A DNA stretch of 64,000 nt from Bacilli bacterium (GCA_017438635.1 JAFRUZ010000002.1:67232-131231); one strand, 5' to 3'. Shown: positions 1-9,047, numbered from the stretch's first letter. Made by a program: numbers and translations. The notes: generated from the sequence alone by a model not told the origin.

Positions 1-325
1 CAGGTCTAACATCACCGGTTTTTTTATCAAAATCTTCAATTAAATTAGTATTTTTAGCTAAATGTTTTATACTTTCAACTGTTACCCTCTTTGCAAGTTC
101 TACTTTGATTACATCTTCTTCATTAACAATAAATCTGTTTGGAGATCTAAGTATATTATCAATATATGGAATTGTTTCTTCCATTAGATCAATCCATTCA
201 TAATCACATTCTACTTTATCAAAATCAGTAACAATTCTTAGCTGTGAATTAATATCTTTGTTAAAGTTTCCAACTTGTTTTTCACTAGCTTTATTATATA
301 AATTAACAACATTAAGCTCAGCCAT
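1..325 (-). CDS. hypothetical protein, N-terminal 108 codons only (runs off the window edge); sits where a partner of the McrB-like ATPase would be
   Basis: Not in the ORF track because it is truncated. Manual translation from ATG at 325-323: MAELNVVNLYNKASEKQVGNFNKDINSQLRIVTDFDKVECDYEWIDLMEETIPYIDNILRSPNRFIVNEEDVIKVELAKRVTVESIKHLAKNTNLIEDFDKKTGDVRP. No stop down to position 1. Starts 12 nt after the stop of 338..1879. Confidence 0.55.
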   Translation of the reverse strand, partial: MAELNVVNLYNKASEKQVGNFNKDINSQLRIVTDFDKVECDYEWIDLMEETIPYIDNILRSPNRFIVNEEDVIKVELAKRVTVESIKHLAKNTNLIEDFDKKTGDVRP

Positions 326-337
326 AATATCACCAAC

Positions 338-1879
338 CTACGCCATCTTTTTAAGTCTTAATAAATATTCTATACATTCCTTCATCTTATCTTGACCAAA
401 TGTTTTGTTCAAGAAATCAACATATCCATCTATTTCATCACGAATATACGCTAAATTTAATTGCTCAAATTTACGTAAAATCTTACGAGCTATGAAGTAG
501 TCTATACCATCTACTTCATCTCCACCACAAGCTACATATACAGGTACAAATTTCTTCATGTGCATAACAATACGGTTACCAAACGCAATACGGAAATGTT
601 TAATTACATAATTATCCATTTCTTCAATCTTATCAAGTGAATCTTGACTAACTTGATTTTGTTCAATTGCGTCTGTAAATAGTTTATGAACATAACTGTA
701 GTTAATATCTTGTGCTGGGGTATCAATAGGTTCAAATACTTCACCTTTATCGTTGATATCAATAGGCATAGCACGGTCGTATACCTTATCTGTTACGGCA
801 AAGGTAGAGTCATCGTTATTGATTGTTCCTATATACCACATGTTTTCAGGTACATGTAATTTTCCACCTTTTATATACTTTGGATCGGTATCCCACGCAG
901 ATGATACTAATTCGATAATCCATTCATCTGTATTTGGCATTTCTAGAATAGATAACATTTCAGCGAAATAGTACTCAACACGTGAGATATTCATTTCATC
1001 TAGGATTATTGTATGTATATCATCAGTATAACCTGCTACATACATTTCTTTAAGCATTTCTGTTTCATTAAATCTTTTCGTAAATTCATTGAAGTATCCA
1101 AAAAGTTCTGTTCTATCACGCCAAGACGGTTGTACTGATGCAACACAGGAATCGTGTTTCAAAAATTTCCCCCAAGCGTACGCAAGTGAAGTCTTACCAG
1201 TACCAGAAATACCTTGTAAAATTATCAGTTTAGTAGATGCTAAACCAGCAATAAATATTCTTATTAATTCACTCTTATAATAAAGTCTAAGTTGTGAAGC
1301 AGCAAAGTTTCTAAACAATTCAACAAGCTCTTGTAAATTGAAACTATTACCATAATTTTGTATTTTATAGTTAGCGTATTCTTTATCAATAGTAGCAAGC
1401 TTTGCAAATCTAGAATCAGTAGCATTAATTGTATCTTCTTTCTTTTCACCGTCAGCAGAAGAAGAAGCAACCTCTTCAGTATCACTTTCATCAGGTCTCA
1501 ATCCTAAATGAGATACTTTCATAGCCAATATATCTTCTTTTTCTTTCATTAGACTAGATACTTCATTATTAAGAGTAGAAACTTCTTCAAGTAATGATTC
1601 TTGTTCTACAATAGTCTTTCTAAATCTAATGTATTTTCTAATCAACAAGTATGCTAATAAACCAATTATAGCAAGTATAGCAATTATAGAAAGAATTGCA
1701 AGACCTACTAACAACCATTCTGGACCACTGAAATCTTCTTTATAAAAGTTAATTATTTTAACATATTCTTTTATATTGAACATTCCTTTTATACCAGTAC
1801 CAAAACCTTTAAAAACGGAGAAAATACCGCTAAAGAATTGGAACAAAAATTCATATAAAAATCTAAAAAATGTATCCAT
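338..1879 (-). CDS. membrane-anchored McrB-family AAA+ (GTPase-type) protein with a coiled-coil linker
   Basis: 513 aa. Hydrophobic N-terminus and TM helix LLVGLAILSIIAILAIIGLLAYLLI. Heptad-like EQESLLEEVSTLNNEVSSLMKEKEDIL. Walker A LQGISGTGKTSLA, Walker B IILDEMN, McrB-like YIGTINNDDST and ELFGYF segment. RBS GGAGGG upstream. Confidence 0.75.
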   Translation of the reverse strand: MDTFFRFLYEFLFQFFSGIFSVFKGFGTGIKGMFNIKEYVKIINFYKEDFSGPEWLLVGLAILSIIAILAIIGLLAYLLIRKYIRFRKTIVEQESLLEEVSTLNNEVSSLMKEKEDILAMKVSHLGLRPDESDTEEVASSSADGEKKEDTINATDSRFAKLATIDKEYANYKIQNYGNSFNLQELVELFRNFAASQLRLYYKSELIRIFIAGLASTKLIILQGISGTGKTSLAYAWGKFLKHDSCVASVQPSWRDRTELFGYFNEFTKRFNETEMLKEMYVAGYTDDIHTIILDEMNISRVEYYFAEMLSILEMPNTDEWIIELVSSAWDTDPKYIKGGKLHVPENMWYIGTINNDDSTFAVTDKVYDRAMPIDINDKGEVFEPIDTPAQDINYSYVHKLFTDAIEQNQVSQDSLDKIEEMDNYVIKHFRIAFGNRIVMHMKKFVPVYVACGGDEVDGIDYFIARKILRKFEQLNLAYIRDEIDGYVDFLNKTFGQDKMKECIEYLLRLKKMA

Positions 1880-1891
1880 ATATTCCCTCCA

Positions 1892-7657: not shown

Positions 7658-8266
7658 CTACTCTCCTTCATATTGGACAACTTGTTCTCCATTATACTGA
7701 GTTAATAATACATTTACAGGAATTTCTATAGTTGCATTCTCAGTTTTCCCCAATTCATAATCTTTATCATTATTAGCCTCAACATTAGGCCAACTAATTG
7801 TAGTTCTTATAGTATCCACTTGATCCAGTTCAATTTCATCAAGTGTAATAATCCCAGTATATGTACTAGGACCTGTTTGAATTATTCTTTTACCTGAAGT
7901 TTCTCTAACGCTAGAAACCGCAATAGAAGTCTCTGAATCTTCAAGATTGCTATAATCAAAAGTTATATCATACCTCACTGATACTTCTGTACCACTAGGA
8001 TCTATGGCAATATCAAAATACCCACCTAAACCTGGGGCTAATCTTCCAGTTTTAACATTTACATCTGAATCATAATTGATAGTATCTATATCAAAATCCA
8101 CTGCTTCAGATGTTACATCAACTTCATTAACTAAAATTGTCCATTGCCCAAGGCCATTTTGCACTACCCTTGTAGTATCAGATTGCAAAAGAGAAAAAGC
8201 ATATAATATACCAACGATTAAAACTATTCCAAGAACTAAACTAGATATATAAAATATTCTTTTCAT
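7658..8266 (-). CDS. exported TasA/camelysin-like small protein
   Basis: 202 aa. Signal/TM ISSLVLGIVLIVGILYAFSLL. RLAPGLGGYFDIAIDPSGTEVSVRYDITF resembles the PG-x-F-x-hydrophobic strand motif of the TasA/CalY family. Confidence 0.45.
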   Translation of the reverse strand: MKRIFYISSLVLGIVLIVGILYAFSLLQSDTTRVVQNGLGQWTILVNEVDVTSEAVDFDIDTINYDSDVNVKTGRLAPGLGGYFDIAIDPSGTEVSVRYDITFDYSNLEDSETSIAVSSVRETSGKRIIQTGPSTYTGIITLDEIELDQVDTIRTTISWPNVEANNDKDYELGKTENATIEIPVNVLLTQYNGEQVVQYEGE

Positions 8267-9000
8267 TATTCAGCTGATTCGTTTTCGTTTGACTTTTCTT
8301 CTTGTTCTTCAACTTTATTCTCTTGAATTTCTTCTTCGTTAGTTTGAACAACTTCTTCTTTTTCTACTTCTTTTTCTTTTTCTTCCACCACAACTGGTTT
8401 TTCTTCTTCTTCACTCTTTTCTACAGGTTTATCATCATCACCAGCAGGCTCTTCTTTATTAACTTCTTTTTCTTTTCCTTCGTCTTCAGGTCTTACAATT
8501 TCTTTAACAACAGCATAAATTTCGTAAAGGAAAATTACTGATATTGGAAATACTATCATTAACAAGAATCCCCATCTAGATTCTAAAACAGCTAATATAC
8601 CTCCAACATTGTTTATAACTTTTGCAGTATCTGCTTTACCAATTACATAATCACTAGAAAGTTCATAATTTCCAGTAATAGTATATGTAGTTTGAGTATC
8701 AGTTACTTTTTGAGTTTTTAAAACTTTACTGAAACTAACAGCAATTTGATTTTTATATGTATTATAGAAAAATATTTCATCATTAACTTTTATATCATCG
8801 TTTTTATTCTTTTTAACGATAATCAAAGTACCCTTTTTATAACTAGGTTCAAATTCATCATTTTTAACAATTATAAAAGACTTATCTCCAAACACAGAAA
8901 TCTTATAATCATTATAAGTTAACAAACATGCAGTTAAAAAAACTGCCACTAATAAATACACTGTTGCAAATATACCAATAATTATTCTTTTTATTTTCAT
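8266..9000 (-). CDS. SipW-like pseudo-peptidase with a long acidic C-terminal tail
   Basis: 244 aa with TM helices at both ends. The Ser-box position reads VKNDEFEPS and the His-box position reads VSFSKV. About 75 aa of E/K/V-rich tail follow TM2. First gene after the predicted promoter. Confidence 0.5.
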   Translation of the reverse strand: MKIKRIIIGIFATVYLLVAVFLTACLLTYNDYKISVFGDKSFIIVKNDEFEPSYKKGTLIIVKKNKNDDIKVNDEIFFYNTYKNQIAVSFSKVLKTQKVTDTQTTYTITGNYELSSDYVIGKADTAKVINNVGGILAVLESRWGFLLMIVFPISVIFLYEIYAVVKEIVRPEDEGKEKEVNKEEPAGDDDKPVEKSEEEEKPVVVEEKEKEVEKEEVVQTNEEEIQENKVEEQEEKSNENESAE

Positions 9001-9018
9001 CTTCTACCACCTATTTTA

Positions 9019-9047
9019 AGTATAACAAAAGCAAAAAAAATATTCAA
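9019..9047 (-). promoter_or_regulatory. sigma-A-type promoter of the fibre/AAA+ gene array
   Basis: Minus strand TTGAAT (9047-9042), 17-nt spacer, TATACT (9024-9019). RBS GGTGGT precedes the ATG at 9000. Confidence 0.4.

Follow-up and report, generated by a model that had tools for sequence, protein, structure and literature searches.

What an McrB-like AAA+ ATPase does among genes for signal peptidases and secreted fibres is the question raised by a gene array at one end of a 64,000-nucleotide (nt) stretch of DNA from a Bacilli bacterium (GCA_017438635.1 JAFRUZ010000002.1:67232-131231), the whole of which was analysed and is called the window here. The array occupies positions 1 to 9047, and its genes are labelled g1 to g10 within the window and g11 to g16 where the cluster runs on past base 1. 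We find that positions 1 to 9047 are the upstream two-thirds of a conserved locus of the CoCoPALM type in an uncultured gut Firmicute of low guanine-plus-cytosine (GC) content. The locus is a well-resolved example of that named and published association, and the core inference, that the fibre genes and the ATPase are linked, is well supported. What the ATPase contributes is a matter of reading, and we lean slightly toward an engine or regulator at the membrane that is driven by GTP and serves the assembly of fibres.

Where the ATPase module lies in the cluster bears on what it might do. The original prediction described ten co-directional genes, with the module (g8, g9 and g10) as the distal end of an operon of the SipW/TasA type. 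All ten minus-strand open reading frames (ORFs) and every claimed gap between them were reproduced (Table 1), as were good ribosome-binding sites at the last three junctions, read from the sequence as AAGGAGG-N8-GTG, GGAGGG-N7-ATG and GGTGAT-N5-ATG. The array, however, does not end at g10. An exact-match look-up placed it on a 340-kb contig (L001), on which twelve genes rather than ten are co-directional. The full-length g10 (372 amino acids [aa]), read from that contig, lies 10 nt upstream of g11, a SipW-like peptidase that keeps its catalytic residues, and only 1 nt separates g11 from g12, which has a FAWF-type signal. Next come the convergent g13, then g14, g15 (a paralogue of g5) and finally g16 (L001 16721-21542), which closes the cluster and encodes a protein of more than 2,500 aa with one N-terminal transmembrane segment; no Pfam domains were found in its first 1,607 aa. 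We note that a g16-like gene is located upstream of g1 in many relatives. Thus, as an active SipW-like gene, fibre-family genes and a giant protein all continue past g10, the module is not distal and is instead embedded inside the fibre cluster. The complete inventory counts eight secreted paralogues of the fibre family, each with a signal anchor at its N terminus (g2, g4, g5, g7 and g12 to g15), the giant surface protein g16, and four SipW-family membrane proteins, of which g3 and g11 are catalytically intact and g1 and g6 are dead. At the centre of the locus, set between SipW-like genes, are the three cytoplasm-facing proteins g8, g9 and g10.

The fibre genes and the AAA+ module travel together. 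The g9 family is large, with at least 8,000 clusters at 90% identity and 8,321 representatives at E < 1e-3, and a species-genome scan found relatives in at least 597 GTDB species genomes, mostly metagenome-assembled genomes (MAGs) from gut and rumen. Relatives with 62 to 77% identity to g9 are labelled Bacilli, Erysipelotrichaceae, "Tenericutes" or Mollicutes, and those with 50 to 58% identity are labelled Acutalibacteraceae, Ruminococcus or Oscillospiraceae. In the 80 best loci, all locus proteins were mapped by blastp and by hidden Markov model (HMM), and 77 of these loci had at least 6 kb of flank. The first mapping put g9 and g10 amid SipW-like and fibre-family genes in every adequately flanked locus, and by HMM mapping 75 of the 77 have both SipW-like and fibre-family genes, one or more of each; one of the two exceptions, L073, still has a downstream protein with a SipW-type signal. 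The junctions are short as well, with median gaps of 9 nt between g8 and g9 (31 loci), 16 nt between g9 and g10 (81 loci), 2.5 nt between g10 and g11 (56 loci) and 1.5 nt between g11 and g12 (50 loci). Three architectures occur. In the first, which the window shows, g8 is a gene of its own and stands upstream of g9; in the second, a SipW-g8 fusion is upstream of g9; and in the third, the Clostridia type, g8 is absent and the order runs from g14 and g5 through a strong terminator to a g1-like gene, g9 and g10. That the two parts belong together, as had been proposed, was thus borne out in Bacilli and Clostridia alike by their co-occurrence in 75 of 77 informative species genomes, by the retained short junctions and by the SipW-g8 fusion. 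We conclude that a functional link between fibre genes and ATPase is strongly supported by this comparison of genomes. An ATPase that is a chance neighbour of the fibre genes, or a recently inserted defence module, is ruled out by synteny kept in 75 of 77 genomes. Moreover, the abundance of the locus in small-genome gut and rumen Firmicutes (at least 597 GTDB species and more than 8,000 g9 clusters) makes it likely to matter for the attachment of these commensals to hosts, to particles or to each other.

The protein at the heart of the module, g9, is predicted to be a membrane-anchored McrB-family AAA+ GTPase with intact nucleoside triphosphatase (NTPase) motifs. It matches the NF008457 McrB model (E 8.9e-6), and residues 197 to 369 match the McrB chains of the PDB (6HZ4 and 6UT6) with E 1.9e-4 for the single sequence and 1.2e-5 for the family profile. 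Its motifs are a Walker A (GISGTGKTS), a Walker B (LDEMN) and N354-x-D356-D, an assignment to the NxD type that carries a caveat, as the ungapped HMMER pairwise alignment to the NTAD of McrB also permits N354..D357. An alignment of 16 sequences shows no variation in either Walker motif, N354, D356 or R369, and has D, E or Q at position 357 (GTINNDDST). Residues 1 to 150, which matched no DNA-binding family, comprise a hydrophobic or transmembrane segment, a heptad region and an acidic linker: a single strong transmembrane segment (56 to 74) is followed by RKYIRFRK and a stretch of 3 to 4 heptads (about 90 to 125). Pfam scans of this N terminus for FtsB, DivIC or FtsL gave only sub-threshold matches to DivIC (PF04977) and FtsL_2 over the transmembrane and coiled-coil part (E 0.014 to 0.21, in 5 of 11 family members). 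g9 is also the best-conserved gene of the locus, with a median identity of 62% versus 28 to 45% for all others, as befits a motor that is conserved while the surface parts around it evolve fast. In three relatives (P0126, P0130 and P0133) the AAA+ part is 51 to 56% identical, and a presumably extracellular N-terminal segment of 200 to 300 aa plus a hydrophobic stretch replaces the short N terminus.

The partner of g9 is a homologue of the N-terminal part of McrC. g10 matches DUF2357 (PF09823) with 42.7 bits against a cut-off of 23.3, and its AlphaFold2 (AF2) model, with a pLDDT (predicted local distance difference test) score of 67, has helices, a long beta-hairpin at 149 to 186 and a helical C terminus. 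The hairpin would fit the "finger" of McrC. In the model, helices span 195 to 370 with pLDDT of 36 to 56 in the C-terminal part, and no single long coil is formed. A PD-(D/E)xK nuclease was not found in g10 by Pfam (DUF2357 only), PADLOC, PDB profile or Foldseek: no PADLOC model matched, the g10 profile found nothing among PDB sequences, and Foldseek of the model against the PDB gave nothing significant (best E 0.02, to unrelated folds). Sequence and model together thus mark g10 as a putative McrC-N-domain protein without a detectable nuclease.

The pairing of an McrB-like ATPase with signal peptidase genes has been described before. The original prediction knew of no such locus, but a large clade of McrB-like GTPases with an NxD motif, associated with signal peptidases, was already named CoCoPALM by Bell, Makarova, Wolf and Koonin (eLife 2024, PMC11090510). 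The account given there fills one paragraph plus a figure supplement, does not go through the anatomy gene by gene, and defers the analysis to a forthcoming publication. A full-text search returned the name from that paper and its preprint only, and the accessible part of the supplements of the CoCoNuT paper holds no CoCoPALM entries. The locus studied here shows the testable features of the description: an McrB-family GTPase with an NxD-type motif, usually followed by D or E; an N-terminal transmembrane segment and putative coiled-coil instead of a DNA-binding domain; an adjacent DUF2357 partner (g9 and g10 are neighbours in 81 loci); constant association with the signal-peptidase family; and Bacillota hosts. 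Two points match less clearly. CoCoPALM is described with an FtsB-like transmembrane segment and coiled-coil, whereas g9 has its membrane segment, heptads and only the sub-threshold DivIC/FtsL_2 matches; and the McrC homologue of CoCoPALM "usually" has a coiled-coil, whereas no long coil stands out in the AF2 model of g10, the C terminus of which is of low pLDDT. Nothing contradicts membership, and we conclude that the locus belongs to CoCoPALM. Beyond the published text are the SipW paralogues of both kinds, live beside dead, g8 with its SipW fusion, the eight paralogous fibre proteins, the McrC homologue with no detectable nuclease and the three locus architectures. This anatomy (paired dead and live peptidases, SipW-g8 fusion, no detectable nuclease and three alternative architectures) gives experimental handles on a system that had merely been named.

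McrBC of Escherichia coli K-12 (6HZ4 and 6UT6) is the nearest characterised relative of the g9-g10 pair. The AAA+ core of g9 aligns with that of McrB over both Walker motifs, the sensor Asn and the region of the Arg finger, and g10 shares the McrC N-terminal domain with its predicted finger. Unlike in McrBC, however, a membrane anchor replaces the DNA-binding N-domain of g9, the motif is NxD instead of NxxD, the PD-(D/E)xK nuclease is not detected in g10, and the genomic context is secretion and fibre genes rather than restriction-modification genes or defence islands. Perhaps g9 and g10 nonetheless belong to the CoCoNuT/McrBC lineage as a system of conflict or phage defence that has become tied to the fibre locus and does not build fibres; one possibility is that such a system senses phage attack via the fibre as a phage receptor and then shuts down or sacrifices the cell. 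The McrB ancestry of g9 would agree with this, as would the placement of CoCoPALM by Bell et al., in the part of PMC11090510 that concerns it, among CoCoNuT-like relatives of type IV restriction. g9 moreover matches PDC-M26A, a candidate-defence model of PADLOC (E 4.7e-33), and a prophage lies next door. Neither a nuclease nor any other recognisable effector was found in g10 or its neighbours, however, and g10 had no PADLOC match. Defence genes are typically patchy and mobile, whereas g9 is better conserved than any other gene of the locus and holds a fixed syntenic position in hundreds of species of two classes, and in some genomes g8 is fused to a SipW-like protein. We therefore consider a defence role quite unlikely, and return to fibre assembly as the reading that we favour.

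How the ATPase could communicate with the secretion genes is suggested by g8. This protein is cytoplasmic and has no transmembrane segment; in its AF2 model (pLDDT 70) a helical bundle at the N terminus is confident, and an alpha/beta domain makes up the C-terminal part. Directly upstream of g9, 11 loci have an ORF of 646 to 756 aa in which a SipW-like N terminus is joined to the g8 domain in its full length (hmmsearch E 1e-34 to 1e-49), an arrangement that fits the N-in/C-in topology of SipW. Such fusions are strong evidence from gene structure that g8 would work with a SipW-family protein on its cytoplasmic side. The fold of g8 offers a lead of another kind. EAL domains (FimX, LapD, RocR and MorA) made up 19 of the top 20 Foldseek matches, with probabilities of 0.54 to 0.94; the matches are weak (E about 0.1, TM-scores 0.17 to 0.40). 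FimX and LapD among them are degenerate receptors of cyclic di-GMP (c-di-GMP), and a conserved GYxFAxxxD motif of g8 resembles DDFGTGY. By sequence, no EAL domain was found in Pfam or the PDB, and a diverse 30-sequence profile of g8 returned from the PDB only spurious helical repeats and no EAL protein. We tentatively call the C-terminal domain EAL-like, as a lead from the model only.

These similarities bear on a further explanation, that the module is a regulator or positioning device in which an FtsB-like anchor and an EAL-like g8 couple fibres to the division site, the pole or a second messenger, with GTP as a switch. The degenerate c-di-GMP receptors among the g8 matches point in that direction, as do the sub-threshold DivIC/FtsL_2 matches in several g9 family members, and in L073 (54% identity; 4046-10001) g8, g9 and g10 directly follow the division and cell-wall genes mraZ, rsmH and that of a penicillin-binding protein (PBP). 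Every such similarity is below significance, however, and the g8 profile finds no EAL protein. Moreover, loci of the Clostridia type keep g9 and g10 without g8, and rings of the McrB type act as processive motors rather than as simple switches (PMC6624300, PMC7680126). A purely regulatory or positioning role is thus unlikely in our judgment, and an active part in fibre assembly is the reading that we carry forward. The window also has a PBP gene of its own (688 aa, 47437-49503) about 3.3 kb from a tRNA pair. Such proximity to division genes could be chance, but the anchor of g9 is described for CoCoPALM as FtsB-like.

The membrane components of the locus are SipW-family proteins of two kinds. 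g3 is a signal peptidase I of the SipW/archaeal type (TIGR02228, 70.4 bits against a cut-off of 51.85) that is fused to two Cna_B domains (E 3e-42). Alignment showed that the catalytic motifs SGSM (Ser) and THR (His) are kept in g3 and g11 and that both are missing in g1 and g6. g1 is SipW-like by weak matches to NF046067 and TIGR02228 and has N- and C-terminal transmembrane segments plus an E/K-rich tail; g6 matches TIGR02228 below the cut-off (E 1.4e-5). Because the catalytic Ser and His are both missing, g1 and g6 are SipW-like pseudo-peptidases, and both motifs are likewise absent from 53 of 64 orthologues of the g1/g6 type. An active SipW-like gene stands at position +2 after g9 in 58 loci. 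In relatives with 88% identity, the counterpart of g3 is only 216 aa long, and a separate SpaA-domain protein of 605 aa is encoded between tRNA-Pro and g1 (window 6392-7645 compared with L084 1638-3455 and 4978-5628), which suggests that isopeptide-type stalk domains have been shuffled. Three membrane proteins also carry long, charged extensions of low complexity that face the cytoplasm: 45 aa rich in Q and E in g5 (window 5505-5639), 80 aa rich in E and K in g1 (8266-8510) and 75 acidic aa at the N terminus of g11 (L001 12684-12910). Their length is not conserved among orthologues. That N-terminal extensions of the g5 type (45 aa) might be handles for the AAA+ ring was considered and dropped, as they are lineage specific and the n-regions of orthologues have a median of 9 to 23 aa.

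The putative substrates are a family of secreted proteins. Profile-profile comparison of orthologue groups related g2, g4, g7, g12 and g13 to one another with 95 to 99.9% probability in most pairs, and with lower probability for g7 versus g2, g12 or g13. By hhalign, g2, a small secreted protein with one N-terminal transmembrane segment, matched g13 (99.9%), g12 (96%) and g4 (96%); g4, with an N-terminal signal anchor, matched g13 (97%), g2 (96%) and g7 (95.5%); and g7 has a signal anchor with its transmembrane segment at 30 to 48. g5 and g15 are paralogues (hhalign 100%), and g14 is related to the C-terminal domain of g15. The SipW-cognate signal of g5 (FAWFTANKTVSVN) scores 19.2 bits with TIGR04088 against a cut-off of 19, which is marginal, and its motif FAWFTANK is common to g15 and g12. 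We regard g5 as a candidate for the major fibre subunit.

Whether these proteins are of the TasA type, as first described, has a divided answer: the SipW-cognate signal and the SipW context are there, but by sequence the Pfam TasA/camelysin threshold is reached by none of the fibre-family proteins in member-wise scans. The nearest was g12, with a sub-threshold match to PF12389, a jelly-roll family (E 0.022, 15 bits against a cut-off of 22.5); only 1 of 34 orthologues gave a match, and a 34-sequence profile found no TasA chain in the PDB. As neither Pfam scans nor PDB profile gave anything significant, an identification as TasA or camelysin by sequence was given up, and the label is kept at "fibre-family with SipW-type signal." The locus nevertheless resembles tapA-sipW-tasA of Bacillus, the sipW-bsaA type of Clostridium perfringens and archaeal bundling pili in its dedicated signal peptidase I of the endoplasmic reticulum/archaeal type, its SipW-cognate signals (a TIGR04088-like FAWF/AYF motif) and its multiple paralogous beta-rich subunits. 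It differs from them in that its subunits fall under that Pfam threshold and in its extras: the pseudo-peptidases, g8 and the McrBC-like pair.

How these parts might work together can be proposed by analogy. In the favoured reading, g9 would form an McrB-like hexameric ring held at the membrane by transmembrane segments and coiled-coil stalks, and the beta-hairpin finger of g10 would enter the ring and stimulate GTP hydrolysis as McrC does on McrB, for which the hydrolysis of GTP by McrBC is the precedent (PMC6624300, PMC7680126). Via g8 and SipW-like cytoplasmic tails, the engine would then drive or gate the processing of signal-anchored subunits and their hand-over to the growing fibre. Such a machine would be a functional analogue of the PilB/PilC/PilD core made from unrelated parts. 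The likeness to type IV pili and type II secretion (PilD, PilB and PilC) is one of proposed logic only: membrane-anchored subunits that begin with a hydrophobic segment, a leader peptidase devoted to them, and in the cytoplasm an NTPase hexamer whose hydrolysis is coupled to assembly by a partner at its centre. No component is homologous, as the ATPase is of the AAA+/McrB class instead of the PilB/GspE class, the peptidase is a Ser/His SipW enzyme instead of an aspartic prepilin peptidase, and a polytopic platform protein is absent from the locus.

Several points count against an engine for fibre assembly. Elsewhere, to our knowledge, McrB-family proteins have been described only in restriction and defence, and the match of g9 to PDC-M26A agrees with that background. 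The models of g8 and g10 are of moderate confidence only (pLDDT 70 and 67), and the EAL assignment depends on E values of about 0.1. The label "fibre" itself is inferred from signals, paralogy and SipW context. Moreover, the carriers are uncultured MAGs. Finally, TasA, BsaA and archaeal bundling pili assemble without a dedicated NTPase (PMC9245690), and a motor is not obviously needed; the export of BsaC in C. perfringens borrows type IV pilus proteins (PMC11580942).

A bolder form of the proposal, which we hold possible and somewhat doubtful, is that the McrB-like ring and a nuclease-less, McrC-like "shaft" may power a new SipW-dependent, GTP-powered filament machine of Gram-positive bacteria. 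In that form, the dead SipW paralogues would be platforms that hold subunits, the adaptor g8 may read a nucleotide second messenger, and the motor would have been domesticated from a restriction enzyme. We know of no experimental setting for the McrB family other than the DNA-translocating restriction motor; if an engine for fibres is real, protein fibres at the membrane are assembled here by a domesticated restriction motor. TasA/SipW-like fibres are currently thought to self-assemble without energy input, and they would then have an NTP-driven variant.

How the locus is transcribed bears on whether fibre genes and module form one unit. A single promoter upstream of g1 (TTGAAT-17-TATACT) had been predicted for all ten genes, with the ATPase as a distal add-on of a SipW/TasA operon on an island linked to tRNA-Pro. 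The promoter sequence is present, but its hexamer matches are not above chance: in this AT-rich DNA, 69 promoter-like hexamer sites were found versus 73.9 +/- 9.3 in shuffles. The site lies in the sole non-coding stretch between the hairpin at 9102-9082 and the start of g1, and we consider it plausible by position alone. The terminator reported in the 111-nt gap between g5 and g6 withstood scrutiny, as the hairpin is real and the gap folds better than all 200 shuffles (z = -2.9). The hairpin is kept in L084 (88% identity) through a compensatory C:G to T:A change in its stem, several other loci also have a hairpin with a T-run after their g5/g15-type gene, and where the locus is of the Clostridia type such a hairpin precedes the unit of the g1-like gene, g9 and g10. 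The same gap carries the best promoter-like match of the whole region, TTGAAA-18-TATAAT, which was rejected as a start signal; it would set the start of transcription inside or after the ribosome-binding site of g6. The overlapping extended -10, TGATATAAT, is the better candidate and is conserved in L084, and L007 has TGTTATACT in its place.

With both a conserved terminator hairpin and a conserved extended -10 in the gap between g5 and g6, one promoter for ten genes is not supported. Because of these two signals, we propose that there are probably three units, with g1 to g4 transcribed from the promoter at 9047, g5 alone up to the terminator, and g6 to g12 from about 4390. g9 is most likely transcribed within g6 to g12, and read-through from upstream past the g5 terminator is possible. 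In most relatives of the Bacilli type, g4 adjoins g7 (median gap 11 nt, 29 loci), and the block of g5 and g6 with its two long gaps thus looks like an insertion into an ancestrally continuous operon. That adjacency makes an ancestral operon of g1 to g12 plausible and so speaks for a single transcript, as do the common direction of all genes, the 7 of 9 junctions of 15 nt or less, and possible read-through. The signals between g5 and g6 and the continuation of the cluster past g10 speak against it. Taken together with the island evidence below, we regard a single ten-gene operon on a tRNA-Pro-linked island as very improbable, and keep the division into three units.

Table 1. Features of the array and the adjoining prophage, in window coordinates
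Feature	Position	Strand	Length	Gap to preceding gene	Remark
g1	8266-9000	-	244 aa		First gene of array
g2	7658-8266	-	202 aa	1-nt overlap (-1)	
g3	6392-7645	-	417 aa	12 nt	
g4	5759-6388	-	209 aa	3 nt	
g5	4482-5639	-	385 aa	119 nt	
g6	3855-4370	-	171 aa	111 nt	
g7	2876-3850	-	324 aa	4 nt	
g8	1892-2860	-	322 aa	15 nt	
g9	338-1879	-	513 aa	12 nt	
g10	1-325	-	first 108 of 372 aa in window	12 nt	Gene cut by window edge
Promoter-like TTGAAT-17-TATACT with TG (extended -10)	9019-9047	-			9/12; upstream of g1
Terminator-like hairpin	9082-9102	-			Would directly follow tRNA-Pro after prophage removal
Intrinsic-terminator-like hairpin	4442-4464	-			9 bp plus T-run, after g5
Internal promoter region TTGAAA-18-TATAAT	4381-4410	-			11/12
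Extended -10 TGATATAAT	4396-4388	-			Overlaps the TTGAAA-18-TATAAT site
Attachment-site repeat AATGGTCGGGAAGACAGG	9112-9129		18 nt		Direct-repeat copy of tRNA-Pro 3' end at 44031-44048
Integrase gene	42734-43957	+			Prophage
Holin gene	10528-10932	-			Prophage
GH25 endolysin gene	9632-10528	-			Prophage

The array was also thought to have abutted the tRNA-Pro terminator, a typical location for a genomic island, before a prophage inserted. The prophage part is right: the 18-nt repeat AATGGTCGGGAAGACAGG and an integrase gene are in place, and two related loci (L084 and L085) show the empty site, in which tRNA-Arg, tRNA-Pro and the SpaA-domain gene are followed by g1. The island part is not. GC is 25 to 30% in the cluster versus 21 to 29% in the host backbone, and the cluster occurs in at least 597 species genomes. 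Adjacency to tRNA-Arg/Pro is restricted to the closest relatives, and no tRNA was found within the fetched flanks of 23 of 24 more distant ones. An island at tRNA-Pro is thus ruled out by composition, vertical conservation and the missing tRNA link, and the comparison indicates that the cluster is vertically conserved. The prophage itself (9130-44030) looks complete and is integrated in the 3' end of tRNA-Pro; its GC is 28 to 37%, with a peak in the 10- to 28-kb part, against 21 to 29% in the host backbone. At the end of the prophage beside the attachment site is a Cys-rich ORF of 102 aa (9275-9583, plus strand), on the strand opposite to the lysis genes.

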